A stretch of 64,000 nt of DNA from Desulfatiglandales bacterium (GTDB taxonomy: Bacteria > Desulfobacterota > DSM-4660 > Desulfatiglandales > Desulfatiglandaceae): positions 2,560,001 to 2,624,000 of the forward strand of contig OY759599.1 in the NCBI GenBank assembly GCA_963662465.1. Direction: 5' to 3'. Every line of letters begins with the position of its first letter. The stretch's first letter is position 1. The translations under genes and the position numbers were made by a program. Below are positions 23,532-43,796 of this stretch, in pieces. The notes beneath the pieces are model-generated. The model saw nothing but the letters and a program-made list of their open reading frames with translations, ran no database searches and was not told the DNA's origin.

Positions 23532-23576
23532 AACCACGCCTCTCATTTTGAAATAAATCCGTTTTTTACTTAAAAA

Positions 23577-25503
23577 GTGGGTAGAATGACTCTGTCGCCA
23601 GAGCCAAGCCCCCGTTACCACCGGACAGGCAGTTTTCCCGCATCCGGCGGTCCCGTGAATTACCCCATCCGGGGAGCTTCAAACAGCAGCAATTGACCAT
23701 GCCACCTTGGCCGGATAATGCTTCGCATTGACACCAATCCCTTTTGGGCCAGTTCGTTGTTAGACGGATGCCCTTCAGTGGTACGCCAACGCTTGTGTAT
23801 ATAAGCACGCAAGCGCTTTCTTACCCATCTATCCAGCCTTGTGAGCAGTCCTACATTGCGGCCTCTTTTGTGATAGTTGCCCCACCCTCTCAAAATCGGA
23901 TTGAGCCTTTCTATCAGTAATTCCACAGGTAGATCACCTTGTTGCCGTCGGGTTACCTCCCGCACCTTACGGTACAGGCCTTTGAGCGATTTGGTCCCGA
24001 CCTTCATCCCACGCGTATTGAAATGGAATCCAAGAAAATCAAATCCTTCGGAAAATGACCGCACGCAGGTCTTTTCATCGTTAAGCTCCAGCTTGAGCTC
24101 GCTGAGTACCTGGCGTACATAGACAAGTATTTGGTCTGCTTGCTCGCGCCCGTGGCAGAAAATTACCACGTCATCGGCATATCGGACAAATGGATGTCCT
24201 TTTGCCGCCAACGCATTATCCAGCACTGTGAGGTAAATGTTACTCAGTAAAGGACTGATTACCCCACCCTGCGGTGTGCCGGAGACCTGAAAGCGTATAT
24301 TGCCCTCCTCCATTACTCCAGCCGTCAGCCAGCCGCGTATCAGGCCCAGGACCCGTCGATCCTTCACCACCTTGCCGACCAACTTCATCAGGATTTCATG
24401 ATCCACATGGTCAAAGAAACCTCTGATGTCAAGATCTACCACATAGCCATATCCTTTGCCTCTCAACTCCTGAACCTGGACGGCAGCAGTATGTGTACTG
24501 CGCCCCGGACGGAAACCATAGCTGTTTGGGTGGAAGTATTCTTCAAACACAGGGCTCAGCTGCGCATGCACAGCTTGCTGACACACGCGATCCACTACCA
24601 CCGGAATACCCAGTGGGCGCTTCTTCCGGCTGCCAGGCTTGTCAATGTAAGTCCGCTTGACCGCCTTGCTCCGATAGGTGTCGTTCATCAGTCTGTGCCG
24701 TAAAGTGCTCAGGTGTTCCTTAAGTTTGCCTCTCCATGCCTTCACATCCATGCCGTCAACACCGGCACTGCCTCGGTTGGCAATTACCTTGGCCGATGCC
24801 TTTTCCAGGTTGACCCAGTTGTAAACTTTGTCTATGACACTGTGTAAAATCTTAGCCAATTGATACCATCCTACACCAGATAGGTCTGTATACCACGGCG
24901 GTACTGTCTGCCAGTTCCGGGCCGTTTTCGCTTGGAACGTACCCCTGCCCGCGCAATATCCCTTTACCTACCTTTCACGGTGTCGTCCTTCGGCACAGGT
25001 TGACCCTATGTGCCTAATATGACGGCGCTGACTTCTCATGGTCGCATCAGGTTCCCAGTTCCCTACTCGCATTCTGCGAGACTTCCACAAGATCTCACCC
25101 GGTCACCCCAGTTCTCTATTCTGCTCCTCTCCAAACCTAATCACTTATAACCGTTTCCAGCAAGGCTATCCGCAATATGCCTCGACTTTGATCCCGTCTT
25201 TTCCCCCAACGGGCCGGACTACAGGCTTTAAGGTACCCTCGTCCCACGGCCACGCCACCTCGGTCTAATCAAATGCCGGCCGTCGCTTAGGCATCTGAAA
25301 TCGGATCTGAGCATCGGTCTCAAGCCCTTCTCCCACCCGCCTTACGGCGTAGTGAGTCACTTACCTCCGGCGTTCCCGTTCGATGGGCACGACGGAAACT
25401 TTGCCTCCGGAGAGATAATCCTAATGTTGACCTTATGCCATTTTGCGGTACAGCATAGACAGACTATCACTGTCACTTAGAAAACTGGGGCTGCAGGTCG
25501 CCC
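23577..25503 (-). mobile_element. Group II intron (~1.93 kb), sense orientation, between fliM and fliN
   Basis: 5' end GGGCGACC (GUGYG-like) at 25503; DIII-like GAGAAGTCAGCGCCGTCATATTAG...GAAGGA; DV at 23617-23651 with CGC triad; DVI ending CTACCCAC; putative EBS1 CTTAAA about 270 nt from the 5' end. Boundaries inferred to within 1-2 nt. Confidence 0.85.
23660..24859 (-). CDS. ltrA: Group II intron reverse transcriptase/maturase (no endonuclease domain)
   Basis: GSAGVDG, RPLGIP...DR, SYGFRPGRS, GTPQGGVISPLLSNIYL, YADD, FDFLGF and thumb LNPILRGWGNY; 399 aa, TTG start. Confidence 0.95.
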   Translation of the reverse strand: MAKILHSVIDKVYNWVNLEKASAKVIANRGSAGVDGMDVKAWRGKLKEHLSTLRHRLMNDTYRSKAVKRTYIDKPGSRKKRPLGIPVVVDRVCQQAVHAQLSPVFEEYFHPNSYGFRPGRSTHTAAVQVQELRGKGYGYVVDLDIRGFFDHVDHEILMKLVGKVVKDRRVLGLIRGWLTAGVMEEGNIRFQVSGTPQGGVISPLLSNIYLTVLDNALAAKGHPFVRYADDVVIFCHGREQADQILVYVRQVLSELKLELNDEKTCVRSFSEGFDFLGFHFNTRGMKVGTKSLKGLYRKVREVTRRQQGDLPVELLIERLNPILRGWGNYHKRGRNVGLLTRLDRWVRKRLRAYIHKRWRTTEGHPSNNELAQKGLVSMRSIIRPRWHGQLLLFEAPRMG

Positions 25504-25540
25504 CTTAAAACCGTTCCTGAACGAAATTTTTGTTCAGGCA

Positions 25541-29735: not shown

Positions 29736-30881
29736 ATGTTTAAACGTATCTACATAAACAACTATAAATGCCTTGTGAATTTTGACTGTCAGGTTGATAA
29801 CATAAATCTTTTCCTGGGGAAAAACGACTCCGGTAAATCAACGGTGTTTGAGGTTTTAGCCGCTATACGGCAGTTCGTATGTCATGGAGAAAAAGCGGAG
29901 ACCGTCTTTAAAGCTGAAAGCAGAACAAGGTGGCAAAAGCTGAACTGTCAGGATTTCGAGCTGGAGATTGAAAACGAGGAAGGGGTTTTTTACAAATACC
30001 AGCTTTCCATAGAACATCATGAAAACGGACGGAAATCGGAGGTAAGATACGAACGATTATTTTTTGACGACAAACCTCTTTTAATATTAGAAGACGGGGG
30101 GCAGGTGTCTCTTTATCGAGACAACTTCTCCAAAGGCCCTGAATATCAGGTTGACTGCTCATTATCTGCAGTAGGGACAGTTCCGCCTCGCAATGACAAT
30201 ACCAGACTGACCTGGTTTAAAAGCAGGCTGACCCATCTTATCATTGTTCAGGTCATCCCCCCGATGATGTTCAGGGAAAGTCCCGATGAAACGCCCTATC
30301 CCTCAGAATATCTGGAAAATTTCACATCCTGGTACCGTCATGTTTCTCAGGATCAGGGAATGGCATTTCAGCTGATGAGTGAACTGAGAGAAGTGTTGCC
30401 CGGATTTGCTCATTTCAAATTTGAGGCGGTCGGTGAGAAACATCGCCTGCTGAAAGTTTATTTCAAAAATGAGCAGGACCGGATTCCGACAGCTTATAAA
30501 TTTCATGAACTCTCCGACGGTCAGCGTATGCTTATCGGACTATATACCTTGCTATTTGCCGTATGTGCGGACCGGAATCACAAATATACCCTGTGTTTGG
30601 ACGAACCCGAAAATTTTTTGGCATTGCAGGAAATTCAGCCTTGGCTAACAGAACTTTATGACAGGTGCAATGAGGGAGAAATGCAGGCGTTGCTGATTTC
30701 CCATCATCCCGAATTTATAAACTATCTGCTTGCTTCTCCCATAGGGTGCTGGTTTGAGCGTCAGATTAACCGCCCTACCCGGATTAACAACATAAAGGAT
30801 CGGCTCAGGAATGTAATGGACAAAGAAAGCAGGGGAATTTCCGTCTCGGAAATAATTACAAGGGGATGGCTGAATGACTGA
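29736..30881 (+). CDS. ABC/SMC-like AAA ATPase (AAA_21/AAA_15-like), putative defence or toxin-antitoxin component
   Basis: I.NYKCL, Walker A GKNDSGKST, signature LSDGQR, Walker B LDEPEN, H-loop ISHHP. Confidence 0.85.
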   Translation: MFKRIYINNYKCLVNFDCQVDNINLFLGKNDSGKSTVFEVLAAIRQFVCHGEKAETVFKAESRTRWQKLNCQDFELEIENEEGVFYKYQLSIEHHENGRKSEVRYERLFFDDKPLLILEDGGQVSLYRDNFSKGPEYQVDCSLSAVGTVPPRNDNTRLTWFKSRLTHLIIVQVIPPMMFRESPDETPYPSEYLENFTSWYRHVSQDQGMAFQLMSELREVLPGFAHFKFEAVGEKHRLLKVYFKNEQDRIPTAYKFHELSDGQRMLIGLYTLLFAVCADRNHKYTLCLDEPENFLALQEIQPWLTELYDRCNEGEMQALLISHHPEFINYLLASPIGCWFERQINRPTRINNIKDRLRNVMDKESRGISVSEIITRGWLND

Positions 30882-31416
30882 ATATACACAGGTTGTCATA
30901 TTATGTGAAGATCGGCAACAGGAGATTTTCGCCCGGCACTTTCTCGTAAATTGCGGAATCCGGAAACAGCGGATATATGCGAAAGTAGCTCCGAAAGGGG
31001 TAGGCGCCGGTGAACAGTATGTTCGTGAAAAATATCCCGAAGAAGTCGGAAGCTATCGTCGCTTTTGCAATCAAAAGAACATATCATTGGTCGTTCTGAT
31101 GGACGCAGACATGAATACAGTGACAGACTGCCTGAAAAAGTTGGATGATGAACTTGTGAATGCTTCCCTTGCCAAACGTCAGTCAGATGAAAAAATAGCC
31201 ATTTTTGTCCCCAAAAGAAATATTGAAACTTGGATTTCATACTTACAGGATCAAACTCAGACGGTAGATGAAAAAGAAAAATATCCAAAATATAAAAAAG
31301 AGTCGGAATGCAAGCCTTTTGTAAAAAAAATGGCTGTCAACCGCAATCGAGCCCTGCCTGCAAATGCTCCGAGTTCGCTAAAGGCTGCTTGTGATGAATT
31401 GCCTCGGATTCTATAA
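30874..31416 (+). CDS. TOPRIM-like partner protein (DUF4276/RloB/AriB-like)
   Basis: VILCED, LMDAD and RNIETW acidic motifs; start overlaps the ATPase stop. Confidence 0.6.
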   Translation: MTEYTQVVILCEDRQQEIFARHFLVNCGIRKQRIYAKVAPKGVGAGEQYVREKYPEEVGSYRRFCNQKNISLVVLMDADMNTVTDCLKKLDDELVNASLAKRQSDEKIAIFVPKRNIETWISYLQDQTQTVDEKEKYPKYKKESECKPFVKKMAVNRNRALPANAPSSLKAACDELPRIL

Positions 31417-31510: not shown

Positions 31511-34500
31511 TTATCGTTTCAGATTGATGAGTTCATTCAATATATCGGAACTGGTGGTGATCACCCGGGAGTTGGCCTGATAGGCTCTCTGGATGGTGAT
31601 CATGTTGACGAATTCCTCGGCCAGATCCACATTGGATAACTCCAGGGATCCGGAACTAATGGAACCGCGTCCGCCTGAACCCGCTTCACCAAACATGGCC
31701 GCGCCGGAATCCTCGGTTGCCGTAAATACGTTGGTGCCTTTCAAGGCCAGACCATCGTAGTTCTGAAATGAGGCTACCCCCACCTGGTACAAATCCCTGG
31801 TGGCGCCGTTTGAAAAGGTTCCTGAAATAACGCCATCCTCATCCACGGAAAGTTCAGTTAAACTTCCCGAAGCATACCCGTTCTGACTCTGTCCGGTCAC
31901 CTCCGAAAGGCCGGAAAAGCCTGTAACATTAGTAGTAATGGATAAATCCCAATCAATGGTCAGTTCAGCCGCTCCGCTGTTCAAATCCGTAACCACAATT
32001 TTTGGGTTGCCCCCATCCCTGAGATTCTCAGTACCCTTAGAATCCGTACAGGTGCTTCTGACCCGGTCCAACTGTCCGCTGGAATCAAACCGGAGTACGC
32101 CGCTGATATCTTCCACTTTGCCCTCCGAGGATCGGACGCTCCAGAACCACTGAGAAACCGTATTCAAATTTTCGTCTGCATCCATTTCCATCACCGGGTT
32201 AAAAATGTAATCCACAGTTAAATCAATCTGATTGCCAAGGGAATCGTATACCCCAATCGTGGTGGAATAATCTTCCGGCTCCGAACCACCGGAAAGGGTC
32301 ACCGGTGCAGAAACTGTGATAAATCCGCTCCCGTCCCCACTGGCAACGGCTGTGACCTGGGCCGGGGGAATGAGGTCGGAAGATTTGCCGCCCTCAAGAT
32401 TGGTATTAGAAACCGCTCCGAATGGAACCTCACCGTTACCCCCCGCATAGGCGGTAACGAGGGCGGATGCGGCGGCGTTGCCATTGATTTTATCGGCAAT
32501 ATCCGAAGCAGAACAGCCCTCCACCAGGGAAACCCTAATCTGTGTATCTACAACAGTAACCGTCACATCTGCAACAGCTGGACTCGGTATAACGTATTCA
32601 ACTTGGATCCCGTTCCCGTCTGAGCCAGTCGTATTTGCCACAAAAAGAACCGCAGCGTCACCTTCTCCCAGGGTCTTGCTGGCGGAGCCGTTAAGCAGGT
32701 AATTTTGGCCGATTTCAAGAGCGAAAGTACCACCCACAAGTTGCGTTGGGCCAGAGGCGCCTGGGTAACCACCGCTGTCCTCTCCCACAGAGGCAAAAAC
32801 CAACGTGCTCGCATCTCCATCCGCATTGATAGCAGCGGCAATGTTTGCGGCTGTAATAGACGACCCATCAATTCCAACCTTGATGGTTTTACTTCCGTCA
32901 GAAGCATCCTCTTCAACAACAACCTCACCTGAGTTGATACCACCTGTGAGATTGACTGCCGTATCCTCAAAGGAGACAACACCAGGACCTCCTGAAGCGA
33001 CAGTAACTAGAGCAAACGCATCAGTATCAGCCTCCACCCAACTTTTGATATTGTCCGCCGTAGTAGTTGCTCCAATACCTATCTTAATATTATTTGCATC
33101 AACAATAACGTCACCATCTGCAATACCGCCTTTGAGAGTTGTTTCTCCAGTCGAAACGTTTCCTGCACCGTTATTCGCAGCCCAGGCTAGCACCTGGAAA
33201 CCCGCAGTGGCATCAGCATTGATAGCAGCAGCGACTTCTGCGGCTGTGAAACTACCCCCCCCCAAATTGACCGTTATCGTATCCGGAGAAGTACCAGCAA
33301 CAGAAATAAGCAAACCGCCGGTTCCATTATCGACATATTCAACTTTCATGTTCCCATCCACCCCAGCGACTTTTGCCTCAAAATTAACAAGAGCATCACC
33401 TGCCCCGAGGGTTCCAACAGCTTTCACATCGTCAGTGACATATTCTATTTGGATGTCGTTTCCTACCTCACCATCAGCGTTTGCCGTAAAGGTAACAGCC
33501 GCATTGCCGGTCCCTATGGTCGCTGCAGCTTTCACAGGCGTACCGGCATCGACATATTCCACATAGATATCCTCCCCACCTACACCCGAAACCAGCGGCA
33601 TAAAGCTGACAGCCTCATCGCCTGTACCGATGGTGTTGGTGTTGGTGCCGGTCATAACACTGACCGCGCCGACACCTTTTGAAATCGCGGTGAGCAAAAC
33701 CGATGCCTCAGCATCAGCATTGACCGCTTCAGCTATTTCTTTGGCTGTTGTTGTGCCTTCTACAATTGTAACCGTAATGGTTGTGGTCCCGGAAGGAAAT
33801 TCTTGAACATTAACTCCCAAAGTGGATCCGGCGGATGCGGGAACGTATTGGACCTGGATATTATTGCCTTCCGTCCCGGCAGCATTTGCCACAAATTGAA
33901 CCGCCGCAGCGCCGGCGCCGATTTTTGTTTCCGCTGCCACGTTAAAGTACGCATTGACCATGGCCGCGGCCTGGGACGCCGTCAAATCCTGCCCCCCCAT
34001 ATCAATGGTAAGGGAACTGCCTTCAGACGACACCACGGGACCGCCGCTGCCGGAATCAATATACCTTACATTCGTATCGTTTCCGTCCCCACCCGGCGTC
34101 CTCGCCGTGTAGGTTATGGAAGAAAAATTGTCCGTACAATCAACCATCACGCTGGCAGCCCTGTACTGACCATCCAGGTTGAAGTCCAATCCCATTTTTT
34201 CGGTGGCCACCGGCGATGAATTGACGTTGGCAATCCGGATGTCACCGGCAGCACCGATTTCCCCTGCATTTCCGATTTTGAAACCCTGTACTTTCATCCC
34301 GGCAGTATTGGTCAAAAGACCGTTTTCATCCAGATTGAACGACCCATCCCGCGTATAATATGCACCACCGGTAGCATCTTTGAGCTGAAACAACCCATCC
34401 CCCACAATAGCAAAATCCGTTGTCACGGCCGTCTGCTCCAGAGAACCCTGGTTCCAGACTTCCTTCGATCCCAGCCGTCCACTGCCCATGGCCGTGCTGA

Positions 34501-34633
34501 GGACATTCTGGAAACTGGTGTTTGCTGTCTTGTAGCCAACCGTATTGACATTGGCGATATTGGCCCCCACAATACCCAGCGCCGTGGAATTCGCTTTGAT
34601 GCCCGCAGTTCCCGTATACAATGAATCAAGCAT
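31511..34633 (-). CDS. flgE: Giant flagellar hook protein FlgE2 (1040 aa) with ~625-aa nested insertion
   Basis: N-terminal NIANVNTVGYK and YYTRDGSF; VYDSLG; C-terminal LELSNVDLAEEFVNMITIQRAYQANSRVITT. Confidence 0.93.
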   Translation of the reverse strand: MLDSLYTGTAGIKANSTALGIVGANIANVNTVGYKTANTSFQNVLSTAMGSGRLGSKEVWNQGSLEQTAVTTDFAIVGDGLFQLKDATGGAYYTRDGSFNLDENGLLTNTAGMKVQGFKIGNAGEIGAAGDIRIANVNSSPVATEKMGLDFNLDGQYRAASVMVDCTDNFSSITYTARTPGGDGNDTNVRYIDSGSGGPVVSSEGSSLTIDMGGQDLTASQAAAMVNAYFNVAAETKIGAGAAAVQFVANAAGTEGNNIQVQYVPASAGSTLGVNVQEFPSGTTTITVTIVEGTTTAKEIAEAVNADAEASVLLTAISKGVGAVSVMTGTNTNTIGTGDEAVSFMPLVSGVGGEDIYVEYVDAGTPVKAAATIGTGNAAVTFTANADGEVGNDIQIEYVTDDVKAVGTLGAGDALVNFEAKVAGVDGNMKVEYVDNGTGGLLISVAGTSPDTITVNLGGGSFTAAEVAAAINADATAGFQVLAWAANNGAGNVSTGETTLKGGIADGDVIVDANNIKIGIGATTTADNIKSWVEADTDAFALVTVASGGPGVVSFEDTAVNLTGGINSGEVVVEEDASDGSKTIKVGIDGSSITAANIAAAINADGDASTLVFASVGEDSGGYPGASGPTQLVGGTFALEIGQNYLLNGSASKTLGEGDAAVLFVANTTGSDGNGIQVEYVIPSPAVADVTVTVVDTQIRVSLVEGCSASDIADKINGNAAASALVTAYAGGNGEVPFGAVSNTNLEGGKSSDLIPPAQVTAVASGDGSGFITVSAPVTLSGGSEPEDYSTTIGVYDSLGNQIDLTVDYIFNPVMEMDADENLNTVSQWFWSVRSSEGKVEDISGVLRFDSSGQLDRVRSTCTDSKGTENLRDGGNPKIVVTDLNSGAAELTIDWDLSITTNVTGFSGLSEVTGQSQNGYASGSLTELSVDEDGVISGTFSNGATRDLYQVGVASFQNYDGLALKGTNVFTATEDSGAAMFGEAGSGGRGSISSGSLELSNVDLAEEFVNMITIQRAYQANSRVITTSSDILNELINLKR

Positions 34634-34700: not shown

Positions 34701-36233
34701 CTATCGTTTCAGGCTGTTGGCTTCCTGCATCATTTCATCGCTGGTGGTGATGACCTTGGAGTTGGCCTGATAGGCCCGTTGAATGGTAATCATTTTAACA
34801 AACTCCTGCGCCAGATCCACGTTGCTCATCTCCAGAGAACCGGAACTGATAGCGCCGCGACCCCCGGTATTGGGCGCCCCGAAAATCGCATCCCCCGAAC
34901 TCGCGGTCGACTCAAACATGCCGCCCCCGACAGCCTTCAACCCGGAGTAATTGGCGAAACCGGCCAACCCGATCTGATAAAGGGCTTTGGATTTCCCATT
35001 GGAAAAAACACCCGACACTACCCCGTTACCGTCTATACTGACATCCTCAATGGCCCCTGCGGTGCATCCGTTCTGGGTTTGGGACCCGACCGAAGAGGAA
35101 GACGCAAAGCCGGTGGCGATCAAATCCCAATCGATGGTCAAATCTCCCGCGCCACTGCTCAGCTCCTTGATGGTGATGACGGGATTGCCGTCCGTCAAAG
35201 CATTCCCCGGCGAAGGCGGATCAGCCATTTCGCCTTCATCCCATTTAGTGTTCTCCGCATCCATTTGGCCGCTTCCGTCAAATTGGATAACGCCGTAGGT
35301 TTCGCATGTGCCATCGGACGATCGCGCTGCCCAAACCCATTGGGGAGTACCTTCCTCGTTGGGCTGGTATACAAAGTCGACGGTCAAATCCACCGCATTC
35401 CCCATTGAATCATATACAGTCATGGTCGTGGAATAATTGCTCGGCACCGTGCCACCACTCAAATTTTGAGAGTCAGTGACCTCTACGGCGCCGCTGCCAT
35501 TGCCCACGGCCGTGGCCGTGACCAATTCGGCGGCATCGCTTCCGTTTACCGCATCGGCAACAGCCGCTGCTGTTATTTCTTCGGCGGCTGCCCCCCCTAA
35601 ATCCACTGTGATGGTCTTTCCGGCCACAGAAACGCTCAAACCATCCGCCCCTGAATTAACATAGCGAATGCTGATATCATTCCCATCTTCACCCGGCTCG
35701 ACCGCCGTGTAGGTGACCCCTGAAAAATTCTCACTGCACACAATGGTTGTCGATGCGGCAGCGACTTCATTGTTAAGATTCAATCGGGTCGCCATCTCCG
35801 TGGTAACAGTAGCGGGAGAGGTGGTATCGGAAAAATTAATGTCTCCCAAAGCGCCCAACGCCCCATTGGCGGTTAACTGATATCCCTGAACACTCAAACC
35901 ACTCGCATTCACCAGATTTCCGTCGGCATCCAGGTTGAAAGTTCCGGCCCTTGTATAAAAGGTTTCCCCCTCGCTGTCGGACACCATGAACAACCCTTTC
36001 CCGAGAATAGCAAGATCCGTTGCCTTGCCGGTATCCTGTAGGGTGCCCTGGTTCCACGATTCGGAAGCGCCCCAGGTCTGCCCACCCAGGGTTTCGGCAA
36101 AGACACTGGCAAATTTGTCGGTTCCTGTTTTAAATCCGATAGTATTCACATTGGAGATATTGGACCCGACCACCCCCAACGCCGTGGAATTGTTGAGCAT
36201 TCCCCTTGTTCCCGCAGACATTGCATATATCAT
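34701..36233 (-). CDS. flgE: Flagellar hook protein FlgE1 (510 aa) with one inserted module
   Basis: NISNVNTIGFK, FYTRAG.F, VYDSMG, LEMSNVDLAQEF...QRAYQANSK; follows flgD. Confidence 0.95.
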   Translation of the reverse strand: MIYAMSAGTRGMLNNSTALGVVGSNISNVNTIGFKTGTDKFASVFAETLGGQTWGASESWNQGTLQDTGKATDLAILGKGLFMVSDSEGETFYTRAGTFNLDADGNLVNASGLSVQGYQLTANGALGALGDINFSDTTSPATVTTEMATRLNLNNEVAAASTTIVCSENFSGVTYTAVEPGEDGNDISIRYVNSGADGLSVSVAGKTITVDLGGAAAEEITAAAVADAVNGSDAAELVTATAVGNGSGAVEVTDSQNLSGGTVPSNYSTTMTVYDSMGNAVDLTVDFVYQPNEEGTPQWVWAARSSDGTCETYGVIQFDGSGQMDAENTKWDEGEMADPPSPGNALTDGNPVITIKELSSGAGDLTIDWDLIATGFASSSSVGSQTQNGCTAGAIEDVSIDGNGVVSGVFSNGKSKALYQIGLAGFANYSGLKAVGGGMFESTASSGDAIFGAPNTGGRGAISSGSLEMSNVDLAQEFVKMITIQRAYQANSKVITTSDEMMQEANSLKR

Positions 36234-36277: not shown

Positions 36278-36952
36278 CTAGGACTGCAGAGTCTCCAGGA
36301 CTTCAACGATGTCGCCCAGGGGGATCCGCTTTTCCCCCGCCATCAGGTAAGTGGTTCCATTTTCAAAGGTTACACCGGTAATCCTTGCCGTGGAAAAGGT
36401 TGATACCTCAATCGTGTTTCCATCGGCATCCGTCGCCGCCACATTGAAGGTATAATCGCCATCCGACACCGAGTTACCCTCCAAATCGGTTCCATCCCAG
36501 GTGAGGGACTGCTCCCCGGAATTCAACGAACCGACATTAATGGTTGCCACAAGCTTATCCGCCTCGTCATAGATCGAAATGAGGGTTCCGCTTGCATCCT
36601 CCGGCAAATCAAAACTAATTTTTTCAGAAACCCCATCCGATACGTTAATAGAATCTCCCGATGCCTTGACGGTCTTGCCTATAAAATTGACGGACTGTGC
36701 ATTGTTGATGGACGCCTGATACAAATGCAGATATTCCAGGTTTTCATTGACGTTTGTGAGCTGTTCCAGGGAACTGAACTGGGCCAGCTGAGCCGTAAAC
36801 TCCGTACTTTCCGATGGGTTGAGCGGATCCTGATTTTGAAGTTGGGTCACCAGAAGTTTCAGGAAGTCCTCTTTTCCGACAATGGACGATTCTAAAGTAT
36901 TTGTTGCGCCGCTGCTTGCGGCGACTGAACCGATTAATTCTGTGCCTGCCAT
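36278..36952 (-). CDS. flgD: Hook cap protein FlgD
   Basis: DFLKLLVTQLQNQDPLNP...QLAQFSSLEQ, WDG.D..G....G.Y.F. Confidence 0.97.
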   Translation of the reverse strand: MAGTELIGSVAASSGATNTLESSIVGKEDFLKLLVTQLQNQDPLNPSESTEFTAQLAQFSSLEQLTNVNENLEYLHLYQASINNAQSVNFIGKTVKASGDSINVSDGVSEKISFDLPEDASGTLISIYDEADKLVATINVGSLNSGEQSLTWDGTDLEGNSVSDGDYTFNVAATDADGNTIEVSTFSTARITGVTFENGTTYLMAGEKRIPLGDIVEVLETLQS

Positions 36953-37006: not shown

Positions 37007-40000
37007 TCATGCAAAAAAATCCACGGCGTTTTCATGGCGCATCGCTTTCGGGGTGGCATCCGCTCGTTCGGATTTTTCATCCTGCCTGGTATTCCCTTCC
37101 CTTTTTTGCCCGGCTCTCCCCTTTGTTCGATTGGCCGGTGAAGGGTTATATCCCGCCCCGTTTTTGTCTGAATCCTGGGACAGGGAAACATCAAATTTTT
37201 CAATCTCCAGTCCCTGGTTCTGAAAGTCCGCTTTGAGCTGATGGAGATTATGCTCAATCATCTCCTTGGCGACCAAGGTGTCTACCATCACTTTTACGGT
37301 AACCTGATGACTCTCGGTTAAAATACGAATTCTTAAATGCCCCAATGATTCCGGATGGAGCGACATTTTAACTTCCGATCGGCCATTTTTCAGAAGGAAC
37401 GCCGCAGTCCTGAACAACTGACCGAAACCGTTGCTCCCCTCTGACCGTTTCGGCAGTTCTTTCTCGTTGTCCGGGGCAACGATGGTATTGCTGTTATCGG
37501 ATATGGTGTACGTTTTCGGCGTTGCCTGTGTGTCCTCACCACTGACAGATTCCAGCTTTTCTGAAAGGTTATGGGAGATCTTTCCTTGGAATTGATTCGA
37601 TTTTTCAGATTCAGCCTGACCTTCTCGTTGTTCGGTGTTGGATTTTGAGGATTGCGTTTCCAATTCCAAGGCGCCGGCGGCCGCCCCAATGTTTGCTTTA
37701 AATCCGTCAGACGGTTCTTTTTGCCTCTTCTCGCCCTTTTCAGTCACGCTTACTTCGCCGACGCCGCTTCGGATGGCACGAAGAGAATCTGAAAACAGCG
37801 GGTTCTCCTTCCCTGCCGATGAACTCTCCCCGGAACCGCTTAAGATATTGCCGGTGGTTTTTGTTGCGTTAGATGACAACTCAGGGGTTGCGGAGGCTTT
37901 TTTTTTATCAACCACCGGTCGGGGGGATAATTCCTGGACCTTGGCCGAAAGCTTGACTCCATTCTCGGAAACCCCAGTCTCTTTCAAACCTGAAGCTTGG
38001 AACGATCCGCTCTCAGTCTTCCCAACAACCACTTTCCCGTTTTCTTTCCTGACAACCTTATCAACAGGGGCCTTGACGCCGCCTTTCGCAGGGGTTTTCC
38101 CTTCCGGCAACGGCTCGGGGATTGCCGATGTTGCCTTTTTATCAACCGCCAGCCGGGAAGATGATTCCTGGGCCTTGGCCGGAAGCTTGCCTCCATTCTC
38201 GGAAGACTCAGTCTCTTTCAAACCTGAAGCTTGAAACGATCCGCTCTCAGTCTTCCCAGCAACCACTTTCCCCATTTCTTTCCTGACAGCCTGATCAATA
38301 GGGGCCTTTACGCCCGCTTTCACAGGGGTTTTCGCTTCAGGCATCGGCTCGGGGTTTGACGATGTTGCCTTTTTATCAACCGCCAGCCGGGAAGATGATT
38401 CCTGGGCCTTGGCCGGAAGCTTGCCTCCATTCTCGGAAACCCCAGTCTCTTTCAAACCTGAAACTTGAAACGATCCGCTCTCAGTCTTCCCAACAACCAC
38501 TTTCCCCATTTCTTTCCTGACAACTTGATCAACAGTCGCTTTCACGCCGCCTTTCACAGGGGTTTTCGTTTCAGGCATTGGCTCGGGATTTGACGATGTT
38601 GTCTTTTTTTCAACCGCTGGCCGGGGGGATGATGCCTGGGCCTTATCCGAAAGCTTGACTCCATTCTCGGAAGACTCAGTCTCTTTCAAACCTGAAGCTT
38701 GGAACGATCCGCTCTCAGTCTTCCCAACAACCACTTTCCCCATTTCTTTCCTGACAACTTGATCAACAGTCGCTTTCACGCCGCCTTTCACAGGGGTTTT
38801 CGTTTCAGGCATTGGCTCGGGATTTGACGATGTTGTCTTTTTTTCAACCGCTGGCCGGGGGGATGATGCCTGGGCCTTATCCGAAAGCTTGACTCCATTC
38901 TCGGAAGACTCAGTCTCTTTCAAACCTGAAACTTGAAACAATCCGCTCTCAGTCTTCCCAACAACCACTTTCCCCATTTCTTTCTTGACAACTTGATCAA
39001 CAGACGCTTTCACGCCGCCTTTCACAGGGATTTTCGTTTCAGGCATTGGCTCGGGATTTGACGATGTTGTCTTTTTTTCAACCGCCGGCCGGGGGGATGA
39101 TGCCTGGGCCTTATCCGAAAGCTTGACTCCATTCTCGGAAGACTCAGTCTCTTTCAAACCTGAAGCTTGGAACGATCCGCTCTCAGTCTTCCCAACAACC
39201 ACTTTCCCCATTTCTTTCTTGACAACTTGATCAACAGACGCTTTCACGCCGCCTTTCGCAGGGGTTTTCGCTTCACTCAATGGCTCGGGGTTTGACGAGG
39301 TTGTCTTTTTTTCAACCCTGAGCCGGGGGGATGATGCCTGGGCCTTATCCGAAAGATTGACTCCATTCTCGGAAGACTCAGTCTCTTTCAAACCTGAACC
39401 TTGAAACGATCCGCTCTCAGTCTTCCCAATAACCATTTTCCCGTTTTCTTTCCCGGCAAGCTCAAAAACAGGCGCTTTCACGCCGCCTTTCGCAGGGGTT
39501 TTCGTTTCAGGCATTGGCTCGGGGTTTGACAATGTTGTCTTTTTTTCAACCACCGGCCGGGGGGATGATGCCTCTGCCTTATCCGAAAGCTTGACTCCAT
39601 TCTCGGAAGACTCAGTCTCTTTCAAACCTGAAGCTTGAAACAATCCGCTCTCAGTCTTCCCAACAACCACTTTCCCCATTTCTTTCCTGACAGCCTGATC
39701 AACAGGGGCCTTTACGCCAGCTTTCACAGAGGTTTTCGCTTCAAGCATCGGCTCAGGGTTTGACAATGTTGTCTTTTTTTCAACCGCCGGCCGGGGAGAT
39801 GATGCCTGGGCCTTATCCGAAAGATTTGCTCCTCGCTCAGAAACCCCAGATTCTTTCAAACCTGAAACTTGAAACGATCCGCTCTCAGTCTTCCCAACAA
39901 CCACTTTCCCCATTTCTTTCCTGACAGCCTGATCAACAGGGGCCTTTACGCCAGCTTTCACAGAGGTTTTCGCTTCAAGCATCGGCTCGGGGTTTGATGA

Positions 40001-42910
40001 TGTTGACTTTTTATCAACCGCCGGTCGGGGGGATGATGCCTGGGCCTTATCCGAAAGATTTGCTCCTCGCTCAGAAACCCCAGATTCTTTCAAACCTGAA
40101 CCTTGAAACGATCCGCTCTCAGTCTTCCCAACAAACACTTTCCCCATTTCTTTCCTGACAACTTGATCAACAGTCGCTTTCACGCCGCCTTTCACAGGGG
40201 TTTTCGTTTCAGGCATTGGCTCGGGATTTGACGATGTTGTCTTTTTTTCAACCGCTGGCCGGGGGGATGATGCCTGGGCCTTATCCGAAAGCTTGACTCC
40301 ATTCTCGGAAGACTCAGTCTCTTTCAAACCTGAAACTTGAAACAATCCGCTCTCAGTCTTCCCAACAACCACTTTCCCCATTTCTTTCTTGACAACTTGA
40401 TCAACAGACGCTTTCACGCCGCCTTTCACAGGGATTTTCGTTTCAGGCATTGGCTCGGGATTTGACGATGTTGTCTTTTTTTCAACCGCCGGCCGGGGGG
40501 ATGATGCCTGGGCCTTATCCGAAAGCTTGACTCCATTCTCGGAAGACTCAGTCTCTTTCAAACCTGAAGCTTGGAACGATCCGCTCTCAGTCTTCCCAAC
40601 AACCACTTTCCCCATTTCTTTCTTGACAACTTGATCAACAGACGCTTTCACGCCGCCTTTCGCAGGGGTTTTCGCTTCACTCAATGGCTCGGGGTTTGAC
40701 GAGGTTGTCTTTTTTTCAACCCTGAGCCGGGGGGATGATGCCTGGGCCTTATCCGAAAGCTTGACTCCATTCTCGGAAGACTCAGTCTCTTTCAAACCTG
40801 AAGCTTGGAACGATCCGCTCTCAGTCTTCCCAACAACCACTTTCCCCATTTCTTTCTTGACAACTTGATCAACAGACGCTTTCACGCCGCCTTTCGCAGG
40901 GGTTTTCGCTTCACTCAATGGCTCGGGGTTTGACGAGGTTGTCTTTTTTTCAACCCTGAGCCGGGGGGATGATGCCTGGGCCTTATCCGAAAGCTTGACT
41001 CCATTCTCGGAAGACTCAGTCTCTTTCAAACCTGAAGCTTGAAACGATCCGCTCTCAGTCTTCCCAATAACCACTCTCCCGTTTTCTTTCCTGACAACCT
41101 TATCAACAGGGGCCTTGACGCCGCCTTTCGCAGGGGTTTTCCCTTCCGGCAACGGCTCGGGGATTGCCGATGTTGCCTTTTTATCAACCGCCAGCCGGGA
41201 AGATGATTCCTGGGCCTTGGCCGGAAGCTTGACTCCATTCTCGGAAGACTCAGTCTCTTTCAAACCTGAACCTTGAAACGATCCGCTCTCAGTCTTCCCA
41301 ACAACCACTTTCCCCATTTCTTTCCTGACAGCCTGATCAACAGGGGCCTTTACGCCAGCTTTCACAGAGGTTTTCGCTTCAAGCATCGGCTCAGGGTTTG
41401 ACAATGTTGTCTTTTTTTCAACCGCCGGCCGGGGAGATGATGCCTGGGCCTTATCCGAAAGATTTGCTCCTCGCTCAGAAACCCCAGATTCTTTCAAACC
41501 TGAAACTTGAAACGATCCGCTCTCAGTCTTCCCAACAACCACTTTCCCCATTTCTTTCCTGACAGCCTGATCAACAGGGGCCTTTACGCCAGCTTTCACA
41601 GAGGTTTTCGCTTCAAGCATCGGCTCGGGGTTTGATGATGTTGACTTTTTATCAACCGCCGGTCGGGGGGATGATGCCTGGGCCTTATCCGAAAGATTTG
41701 CTCCTCGCTCAGAAACCCCAGATTCTTTCAAACCTGAACCTTGAAACGATCCGCTCTCAGTCTTCCCAACAAACACTTTCCCCATTTCTTTCCTGTCAAC
41801 CTCATCAACAGGGGCCTTTACGCCGGCTTTCACAGAGGTTTTCGCTTCAGGCATCGGCTCGGAGTTTGACGATGTTGTCTTTTTTTCAACCGCCTGCCGG
41901 GAAGATGATGCCTCTGCCTTCTCCGAAAGATTTGCTCCTCGCCCAGAAACCCCAGATTCTTTCAAACCTGGAACTTTAAACGATCCGCTCTTAGTCTTCC
42001 CAACAAACACTTTCCCCATTTCTTTCCTGACAACCTGATCAACAGGGGCATTGACGCCGGCTTTCACAGGGGTTTTCACTTCACTCAATGGCTCGGGGTT
42101 TGACGAGGTTGTCTTTTTTTCAACCGACAGCCGGGGGGATAATGCCTGGGCCTTCTCCGAAAGATTTGCTCCATCCTCGGAAACCCCAATCTCTTTCAAC
42201 TCAGAACCCTGAAACGCCTGTACATCATTCTTTCCAACACCCGGTTTATCAACTTCAACGCCCACTATCGATTCCCCAGTGGATTTAAACTTCTCTTTTA
42301 TGGGCAATTCCGAACTGGGACTCTTTTCAACGTTCAAAGGCATCGTAATAGGCCTGCCGCCCTGCCCTTTCATGGTCAGGGTTATGCGGCCGGTTTCGAT
42401 CGATTTTTTGGGGGTATTCAGAACGTTGATTTCCGTTTCCGATCCTGCTGAAACTGAAATAGGTTCATCTGCATGTTGTCCACTCAAAAGCGGCGTCATC
42501 AATCCCGGCAAAATCGCCTGTTCCGACTCTTCTGCCATCGGATTCACCGTCAAATCTTTGGATTCTCCATCAAACTCCCGGGTTTCCTCATCCAATTTGC
42601 CGGATTCGGCTTTTACGGATTTGGATTCGAACCGATGCCGAGGATTGGCGCCGCTCACGGCTTTCCCTGAAACAACCGAACCTTTTTCATCCTTGGCGTT
42701 CTCACCCTTTTTCCAGCCCGAAACACCATGAGAGGAAAAACCGGCCTTATGCTCATCAGCCACGGCCGCAAAGGTGGAAAGAAAACCATTCCCACTCTGC
42801 TCCGATTCACAAACCCCTTTGGGAGTTCTTGAAAAAACCGCATCTTGATGTGGCATTATGAGGATGTTGTTCAGCATATTCTTGTTTCCGGATAGTCTTA
42901 AGAGAAACAT
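37007..42910 (-). CDS. fliK: Giant hook-length control protein FliK (~1967 aa)
   Basis: C-terminal T3S4 domain (SEVKMSLHPESLGHLRI...LKADFQNQGLEIEKFDV); directly upstream of flgD. Start is 42910 or 42877. Confidence 0.92.
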   Translation of the reverse strand: MFLLRLSGNKNMLNNILIMPHQDAVFSRTPKGVCESEQSGNGFLSTFAAVADEHKAGFSSHGVSGWKKGENAKDEKGSVVSGKAVSGANPRHRFESKSVKAESGKLDEETREFDGESKDLTVNPMAEESEQAILPGLMTPLLSGQHADEPISVSAGSETEINVLNTPKKSIETGRITLTMKGQGGRPITMPLNVEKSPSSELPIKEKFKSTGESIVGVEVDKPGVGKNDVQAFQGSELKEIGVSEDGANLSEKAQALSPRLSVEKKTTSSNPEPLSEVKTPVKAGVNAPVDQVVRKEMGKVFVGKTKSGSFKVPGLKESGVSGRGANLSEKAEASSSRQAVEKKTTSSNSEPMPEAKTSVKAGVKAPVDEVDRKEMGKVFVGKTESGSFQGSGLKESGVSERGANLSDKAQASSPRPAVDKKSTSSNPEPMLEAKTSVKAGVKAPVDQAVRKEMGKVVVGKTESGSFQVSGLKESGVSERGANLSDKAQASSPRPAVEKKTTLSNPEPMLEAKTSVKAGVKAPVDQAVRKEMGKVVVGKTESGSFQGSGLKETESSENGVKLPAKAQESSSRLAVDKKATSAIPEPLPEGKTPAKGGVKAPVDKVVRKENGRVVIGKTESGSFQASGLKETESSENGVKLSDKAQASSPRLRVEKKTTSSNPEPLSEAKTPAKGGVKASVDQVVKKEMGKVVVGKTESGSFQASGLKETESSENGVKLSDKAQASSPRLRVEKKTTSSNPEPLSEAKTPAKGGVKASVDQVVKKEMGKVVVGKTESGSFQASGLKETESSENGVKLSDKAQASSPRPAVEKKTTSSNPEPMPETKIPVKGGVKASVDQVVKKEMGKVVVGKTESGLFQVSGLKETESSENGVKLSDKAQASSPRPAVEKKTTSSNPEPMPETKTPVKGGVKATVDQVVRKEMGKVFVGKTESGSFQGSGLKESGVSERGANLSDKAQASSPRPAVDKKSTSSNPEPMLEAKTSVKAGVKAPVDQAVRKEMGKVVVGKTESGSFQVSGLKESGVSERGANLSDKAQASSPRPAVEKKTTLSNPEPMLEAKTSVKAGVKAPVDQAVRKEMGKVVVGKTESGLFQASGLKETESSENGVKLSDKAEASSPRPVVEKKTTLSNPEPMPETKTPAKGGVKAPVFELAGKENGKMVIGKTESGSFQGSGLKETESSENGVNLSDKAQASSPRLRVEKKTTSSNPEPLSEAKTPAKGGVKASVDQVVKKEMGKVVVGKTESGSFQASGLKETESSENGVKLSDKAQASSPRPAVEKKTTSSNPEPMPETKIPVKGGVKASVDQVVKKEMGKVVVGKTESGLFQVSGLKETESSENGVKLSDKAQASSPRPAVEKKTTSSNPEPMPETKTPVKGGVKATVDQVVRKEMGKVVVGKTESGSFQASGLKETESSENGVKLSDKAQASSPRPAVEKKTTSSNPEPMPETKTPVKGGVKATVDQVVRKEMGKVVVGKTESGSFQVSGLKETGVSENGGKLPAKAQESSSRLAVDKKATSSNPEPMPEAKTPVKAGVKAPIDQAVRKEMGKVVAGKTESGSFQASGLKETESSENGGKLPAKAQESSSRLAVDKKATSAIPEPLPEGKTPAKGGVKAPVDKVVRKENGKVVVGKTESGSFQASGLKETGVSENGVKLSAKVQELSPRPVVDKKKASATPELSSNATKTTGNILSGSGESSSAGKENPLFSDSLRAIRSGVGEVSVTEKGEKRQKEPSDGFKANIGAAAGALELETQSSKSNTEQREGQAESEKSNQFQGKISHNLSEKLESVSGEDTQATPKTYTISDNSNTIVAPDNEKELPKRSEGSNGFGQLFRTAAFLLKNGRSEVKMSLHPESLGHLRIRILTESHQVTVKVMVDTLVAKEMIEHNLHQLKADFQNQGLEIEKFDVSLSQDSDKNGAGYNPSPANRTKGRAGQKREGNTRQDEKSERADATPKAMRHENAVDFFA
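37890..42217 (-). repeat. In-frame tandem array of ~18.5 x 234 bp (78 aa) inside fliK
   Basis: Anchor C(G/A)ATCCGCTC recurs every 234 bp at 38003, 38237, 38471 ... 41747, 41981 (18 hits) with no indels. Confidence 0.97.
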
Positions 42911-43349: not shown

Positions 43350-43796
43350 TCATGTCGGACTCTTAAGGTTCTTAAATCCATTGATGGCGATTTCGTCCAT
43401 CTCTTTTTGTTCTTTTCGTTGCAGTTCCAGTTTGTGGGCCTTCAATCGGTTCTGCTTCAATTGATCAACGGTCTTGCGCTTCTTAACGGCTTCGATCAGC
43501 TTATTGCGCTTCTTTTGGATATTGTTTTCAAGCCGTACAATCGTCTTATGCTGCACCTTTATCTGTGTGGAGACCCGCCCGATAAAATCGCTGTAAAGCG
43601 ATATATCCACAGCCCTGATGCCCTTCATCTGTCTTTCCTGTAACTCACGGAGACATGTGTTTTTGGTATCTTCAAGCTTCTTCAGTTTTTCTTTTTCAGC
43701 CAGCAGCAATCGTTTCAAGGCTGCCATTTCCTTTTGTAGCTCCTCCTCAATGAGCTTTCGATGCTTCAAAACCGGTTCCAGGCTGAAATGATACAT
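43350..43796 (-). CDS. fliJ: Export protein FliJ
   Basis: MY.FSLEPVL..R N-terminus, coiled coil, EQKEMDE; follows fliI. Confidence 0.92.
   Translation of the reverse strand: MYHFSLEPVLKHRKLIEEELQKEMAALKRLLLAEKEKLKKLEDTKNTCLRELQERQMKGIRAVDISLYSDFIGRVSTQIKVQHKTIVRLENNIQKKRNKLIEAVKKRKTVDQLKQNRLKAHKLELQRKEQKEMDEIAINGFKNLKSPT

Follow-up and report, generated by a model that had tools for sequence, protein, structure and literature searches.

On balance, the single FliK of this Desulfatiglandales bacterium (genome G000) is probably a working ruler whose spacer has been lengthened by duplication and recombination of a 78-aa unit, and it would likely set an unusually long hook. The window, by which we mean the whole analysed stretch of 64,000 nucleotides, comes from a genome that consists of one contig of 8.16 Mb. 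The fliK gene occupies 37007..42910 on the minus strand, an open reading frame of 1967 aa when counted from the first ATG. Translation probably starts at Met12 (42877), since the matching residue is the first one in both congeners (G010 and G004), which would give a protein of 1,956 aa and ~205 kDa. A profile search of G000, which is rated 100% complete, returned fliK as the sole PF02120 gene, and no second ruler gene was found with this profile.

Organization of fliK

The protein begins with a non-repeated region (aa 1-231; 42218..42910, minus strand, as are all parts of the gene) that has 82% DNA identity to G010 and within which the export signal is expected to lie. It is followed by a tandem array of 18.5 units of 234 bp, or 78 aa (37883..42217), a mosaic of several unit types that contains neither indels nor stop codons. 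The array is in register over aa 232-1676 (window 42217-37883), that is 1,445 aa or 73% of the protein. TRF placed it at 37902-42199 with a period of 234, 18.4 copies, 91% matches, 0% indels and a score of 6294; of the six TRF arrays in the window, none of the other five scores above 64. The SG[SL]F motif occurs 18 times at a spacing of exactly 78 aa. The first-pass annotation had described a strict in-frame 234-bp period without indels, with ~18.5 units supplying ~1440 of 1967 aa, ahead of an intact T3S4 domain, and this anatomy is borne out by TRF, by the register and by the domain match given below.

The array is composed mainly of K (14%), S (13%), V (12%), E (10%), G (10%), A (8%) and P (7%), and W, Y, C and H are absent. 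The first-pass annotation had called the S/K/E/G/P-rich unit probably disordered, a reading based on its composition. Disorder-promoting residues make up 68% and aromatic residues 1.6%, and FoldIndex is borderline at -0.02. A single-sequence structure prediction of three units gave a pLDDT of 47, which is uninformative because FlgE2, from a folded family, scored only 38 by the identical method.

A non-repeated linker (aa 1677-1838; 37397..37882) connects the array to the T3S4/Flg_hook switch domain (aa 1839-1915; 37166..37396). This domain matches PF02120 with an E value of 2e-17 and 63 bits (cut-off 29.8) and carries the motif PESLG; PxxLG is kept in all 14 aligned sequences. A family profile also matches Salmonella FliK 2rrl at an E value of 2e-12. 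The C-terminal tail (37007..37165) ends in AVDFFA, and its last five residues, VDFFA, form a hydrophobic end that is conserved in close relatives. A short hydrophobic C-terminal end is found in Salmonella FliK as well. In FliK the last five residues are required for switching (PMC13344023, PMC8545394). Judged by its domain, cluster position and C-terminus, the protein is FliK. A scan for promoters and terminators gave no usable result, and an Rfam search of the window returned 0 matches.

Origin of the array and selection on its units

The units had been called near-identical, which does not hold for all of them: pairs of G000 units differ at 0-46 of 234 nt, with a mean of 27 (mean 12% apart; 88% identity), and only 12 of the 153 pairs differ at four or fewer positions. 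Some stretches of the array are exact copies of one another. A 624-bp block (40136..40759) is repeated exactly at 38732-39355, 6 units downstream, and is a recent multi-unit duplication or conversion; a 515-bp block (41281..41795) recurs exactly 7 units downstream at 39643-40157, and the two copies of a 316-bp block are adjacent. Several unit types of old date thus stand next to multi-unit copies that arose recently. Four-gamete incompatibility among the units grows with distance, from 0.15 at close sites to 0.39 at distant ones (0 of 2000 permutations as low), and the units are therefore mosaic and recombining.

G010 belongs to the same genus, and its FliI is 97% identical to that of G000. 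Its FliK of 1,261 aa contains the same 78-aa unit in the same register in 9.5 copies, and its array is exactly 702 aa (9 units) shorter. This difference, together with the four-gamete signal and the exact multi-unit blocks, agrees with the earlier proposal that recombination changes the length in 78-aa steps. The G010 units are on average 7 nt apart among themselves and 75 nt from the G000 units, and a tree of the 18 and 9 full units falls into two genome-specific clades (support 100/100). This grouping is concerted evolution, with the units homogenised within each genome. The FliK of G004 has 698 aa, and neither a repeat period nor the 78-aa unit was detected in it. The spacer has probably grown as one 78-aa unit was duplicated and recombined over and over, its copy number changing on a between-species time scale.

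DNA identity between G000 and G010 is ~68% in the repeat and 82-88% in the rest of fliK. The corresponding dN/dS values are 0.65-0.84 for the repeat (three unit pairs), 0.29 for the linker, 0.17 for T3S4, 0.11 for flgD and flgE1 and 0.06 for fliI. Within the G000 array, variable sites are spread over the three codon positions as 27/28/27, and pN/pS among units is 0.77-0.93. No stop codon is present among 99 derived unit alleles (P ~0.007 under random change), nor is there any indel. Near-neutral units with a frame kept free of stops fit a spacer whose sequence matters little. Frame kept, sequence free and switch domain conserved is the evolutionary pattern that would be predicted for a length-only spacer, and its near-neutral part suits tolerated filler equally well as selected length.

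The unit was considered as a mobile or dispersed repeat and this was rejected. In G000 it is confined to the fliK array and was not found elsewhere in the genome, and among 105 family genomes it occurs only in G000 and G010. None of 596 candidates in JGI metagenomes was confirmed, and the unit was not found among the 150 best T3S4 representatives. Four ENA contigs encode frameshifted protein fragments with the 78-aa unit and represent the nearest relatives; one 8,149-bp ENA contig has ~2.5 units among the protein matches listed.

FliK length across the class

A PF02120 match is present in 79 of 123 genomes of the class. For the 70 strongest matches, each from a different genome, the median open frame is 591 aa (quartiles 546-670), and no frame but those of G000 and G010 exceeds 1,000 aa; the frames of the remaining 9 genomes are 668 aa or less. 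The G000 FliK is thus ~3 times the usual size. Giant FliKs are probably undercounted, as such arrays break short-read assemblies.

FliKs from related lineages also carry repeats, unrelated to the one in G000. A 69-aa unit accounts for ~300 of the 645 aa of P0048 and ~990 of the 1405 aa of P0072, and P0003 (1117 aa) is filled with it too; periods of 39, 34 and 80 aa were seen in G028, G005 (whose FliK has 514 aa) and G132, respectively. As the 69-aa unit is unrelated to the 78-aa unit, only the expansion is common to these lineages and not the sequence. Repeat expansion recurs among FliKs, and one unit sequence can stand in for another.

A different route to a long FliK-like protein was seen in P0016, P0018-P0021, P0024, P0037, P0047, P0058 and P0102, which contain 3-11 T3S4-like domains each (11 in tandem in P0016). 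Many genomes of the class also encode a second PF02120 protein of ~365 aa, whose gene lies in the interval from fliA to flgF and adjoins a short FlhB-like gene (L045:6086-7456 and equivalents). At this site G000, G004 and G010 have a DUF2802 gene and no second PF02120 gene; the short flhB-like gene of G000 lies elsewhere (C1:2430529).

Predicted hook length

In Salmonella, FliK is secreted and gauges the length of the hook, and the switching of FlhB is the work of its C-terminal domain (PMC13344023, PMC6972891). In the ruler test reported in PMC6126814, Salmonella hook length was linear in FliK length at 0.2 nm/aa, over FliKs of 363-785 aa and hooks of 42-135 nm. By analogy with Salmonella, the N-terminus of the G000 FliK would enter the growing hook, the array would span the channel as inert filler, and T3S4 would reach FlhB and flip export only after the hook has reached a sufficient length. 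On this model each unit would add ~16 nm to the hook (15.6 nm at 0.2 nm/aa), so that the 12-15 nm per unit suggested earlier was about right, given the PMC6126814 slope. The extrapolated hooks measure ~370 nm in G000, ~230 nm in G010 and ~115 nm in G004.

The value of ~370 nm is an extrapolation far beyond the 135 nm covered in PMC6126814. The inserts described there are alpha-helical YscP segments, whereas the 78-aa unit is Pro/Gly-rich, and the protein is 2.5 times longer than the range covered. Salmonella hooks above 75 nm impaired swimming and caused pseudo-tumbles in the same report; long hooks are therefore costly in Salmonella, and a hook of 370 nm would call for an explanation. Switching became poorer when the linker of FliK was made 40 aa longer (PMC6972891).

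In the main alternative, FliK acts as an export switch, but a longer array does not mean a proportionately longer hook. The added residues would be tolerated filler, compacted, threaded past the tip or trimmed, and the hook would be only modestly long. Amino-acid constraint on the unit is absent, unrelated units expand independently in relatives and FliK length ranges widely in the class, all of which, like the cost of long hooks in Salmonella (PMC6126814), would suit filler that is merely tolerated. However, in that work the hook grew linearly with all functional insertions, up to a FliK of 785 aa, and no escape mechanism was found in the literature. We regard this alternative as unlikely, though it deserves to be kept in view.

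Downstream of flgD lie two flgE genes, both on the minus strand: flgE1 (34701..36233), whose product of 510 aa has one inserted domain of ~95 aa with a weak PF17481 match, and flgE2 (31511..34633), whose product of 1040 aa contains four long and four partial matches to that domain. FlgE2 has five such matches in G010 and three in G004. FlgE2 measures 1040, 943 and 753 aa in G000, G010 and G004, where FliK has 1956, 1261 and 698 aa. FlgE2 is among the largest hook proteins seen in this analysis. The length of FliK correlates with that of the longest FlgE (Spearman 0.70, n=17; 0.56, n=14 without G000, G010 and G004), a trend that serves only as a lead because related genomes are not independent. 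It omits G013 (654/279 aa) and G069 (692/258 aa), where the gene after flgD is short and which would weaken the trend, as well as G028 and G055, in which flgE is cut off or absent.

More speculatively, and rather doubtfully, the natural hooks of this lineage might be ~0.35-0.4 micrometre long and braced by the domain-armoured FlgE2, with their length evolving by gain and loss of ruler repeats; such hooks would possibly favour frequent reorientation in pore spaces (pseudotaxis). They would be several times longer than any controlled hook found in the literature. Two published findings are no more than leads here: the C. jejuni hook is stiffened by the additional domains of its FlgE (PMC5097172), and non-chemotactic Agrobacterium migrates better through porous agar when it carries hook or fliK mutations, the fliK alleles concerned having given polyhooks (PMC4358000).

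Proposed copy-number variation within the population

The first-pass annotation had also proposed copy number as a contingency trait. Frequent unequal recombination would then produce mixed hook lengths within a population, with selection acting on the mix. Tandem units able to recombine, a feature of contingency loci, are indeed present, with a recombination signal among them, and the exact repeats (624, 515 and 316 bp) have the length that homologous recombination needs. Loss of a block of 6-7 units would be a large step, predicted at ~95-110 nm, and YscP repeat number differs among Yersinia strains (PMC3469391). Against this, old diverged unit types persist at a mean of 12% apart, the copy difference is seen only between species, and the short-read depth described below fits one copy number and one allele. 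No joint that skips units was listed in the contigs of four short-read runs, which is a weak test as contigs drop rare variants. A single unit would amount to ~4% of the predicted hook, less than the spread of wild-type Salmonella hooks (52.7 +/- 4.5 nm, PMC6972891). The contingency proposal thus appears improbable, and the copy number is better viewed as changing between species.

The flagellar gene cluster

The genes around fliK are arranged as fliI-fliJ-fliK-flgD-flgE, an order identical in G010 and G004. The upstream neighbour fliJ (43350..43796) and the hook cap gene flgD (36278..36952), both on the minus strand, were assigned by profile match. Export, rod, ring, hook, stator and chemotaxis genes are all present in the window as full open frames, and FlhB retains NPTH. 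The injectisome cluster expected of SctP/YscP is not what surrounds the gene, which lies among rod, hook, stator and chemotaxis genes of a flagellum. FlgK, FlgL, flagellin, FlbT and FlaF are encoded just outside the window. The flagellin (C1:2536547-2537704) is PRK12688-like with an E value of 1e-58, below the cut-off of that model. FliD was searched for in G000 and not found; flagellar systems of the FlbT/FlaF type commonly lack FliD.

A hook-only appendage, prompted by weak Pfam flagellin matches and by the missing FliD, is ruled out by the flagellin with FlbT/FlaF and by intact FlgK and FlgL. It is also very improbable that the system is rarely or never built, with the array drifting without cost. 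Besides FliD not being found, the cluster has received two insertions, a group II intron and a cassette of two genes, which might point that way. But both insertions are intergenic, the array is free of stops, purifying selection on the core genes is strong (dN/dS 0.06-0.11) and an FlbT/FlaF-type flagellin module is present.

The flagellin-flbT-flaF module (G000:C1:2535717-2537704, L056) is of alphaproteobacterial type in a Desulfobacterota-type genome, and FlaF was present in 10 of 121 genomes sampled from the phylum. Large TPR-like genes, probably glycosylation-related as judged by eye, flank the module. A second flagellin-like gene at G000:C1:1530699-1532396 (L061) is in three ORF pieces and adjoins transposase-like genes; a beta-rich insert of ~370 aa separates its N- and C-terminal flagellin parts.

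The group II intron (~23570-25510, minus strand; RT/maturase 23660-24859) lies between fliM and fliN directly after a hairpin, and disruption of either gene was rejected, as the insertion is intergenic. G000 contains three further near-identical copies (one shorter) and many other RT genes; the fliM-fliN site of G010 and G004 is free of the intron. The cassette comprises an AAA_21 ATPase and a 180-aa partner (window 29736-31416, plus strand), placed between flgE2 and motA on the opposite strand. It has a low GC content (43-45%), is absent in G010 and G004, and is presumably akin to a defence or toxin-antitoxin cassette.

The main cluster has two motB-like genes, and two more motA/motB-like pairs with a second fliL lie outside it (G000:C1:2425495-2428471 and 2452227-2453779). 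A frameshift splits motA in G010 (L031:6102-6871) and in G080 (L050/L051); the split in G010 looks like a one-base sequencing error.

Copy number in the assembly

Short-read contigs from runs X1 and X2, probably the genome's own source sample, matched both flanks without differences and broke inside the array. For the 15 X1/X2 pieces listed, we compared contig depth relative to the flanks, a rough measure, with mean 31-mer multiplicity in the assembled array. Depth and multiplicity were 7.24 and 6.95, 3.03 and 3.11, 2.09 and 2.28, and 1.67 and 1.75; unique array pieces had a depth of ~1, and the largest gap was 2.50 against 3.12. Short-read depth tracks the assembled copy number, so the array is not an assembly expansion, and the assembled copy number is real. 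That the assembler blew up a few units into 18.5 is hardly credible, even though no short-read contig spans the array and certain blocks are exact copies, because far lower depth would then be expected than was seen, units differ by up to 46 nt, and a second array, of 9.5 units, is present in the independent genome G010.

Relation to known rulers and implications

The nearest well-studied counterpart is FliK of Salmonella enterica (405 aa; PF02120; C-terminal domain PDB 2rrl), which shares the near-C-terminal T3S4, the low-complexity spacer and the single copy in the flagellar cluster. Unlike it, the G000 FliK is 4.8 times longer with 73% in one tandem array, its gene precedes flgD and two flgE genes, and it accompanies an FlbT/FlaF-type flagellin in a genome where FliD was not found. 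A repeat-variable type III ruler is already known as a phenomenon from YscP/SctP, the Yersinia needle ruler, which in the part of PMC3469391 that cites Wagner 2009 has internal repeats of 14, 25 and 46 aa and 452-538 aa across strains, with needle length following. Both rulers vary naturally in length with internal repeat number. The FliK described here differs in being flagellar, in its 78-aa unit, in a length difference of 702 aa against 86, and in varying between species and not strains. Engineered FliK-YscP chimeras (Sporing et al. 2018, PMC6126814) likewise place extra spacer ahead of an intact switch domain; their helical inserts take FliK up to 785 aa and the hook to 135 nm and impair motility, whereas the G000 protein is natural and has 1,956 aa. 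Campylobacter jejuni FlgE resembles FlgE2 in being enlarged by inserted domains: its extra domains D3/D4 make the hook more robust, and it is described as among the longest (PMC5097172). FlgE2 differs in its tandem ~95-aa domains and in coexisting with the smaller FlgE1.

In the literature covered, mainly papers outside subscription journals and judged from their listings, we found no report on a giant repeat-built FliK, be it on tandem repeats and copy number or on a natural FliK-hook calibration. The present case contributes a copy number checked against read depth, a difference of exactly nine units between two congeners, measurements by which the unit sequence lacks constraint, and an enlarged second FlgE that occurs together with the giant FliK.

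Congeners with 0, 9.5 and 18.5 units (698, 1261 and 1956 aa) and closely related export genes form a natural series, and chimera tests could use the 78-aa unit as a spacer of natural origin. Should the ruler rule hold at this scale, hooks in this lineage would be ~7 times as long as those of Salmonella, contrary to a hook length tuned near a short optimum. If it fails, the physical-ruler model would have a limit that natural proteins exceed.
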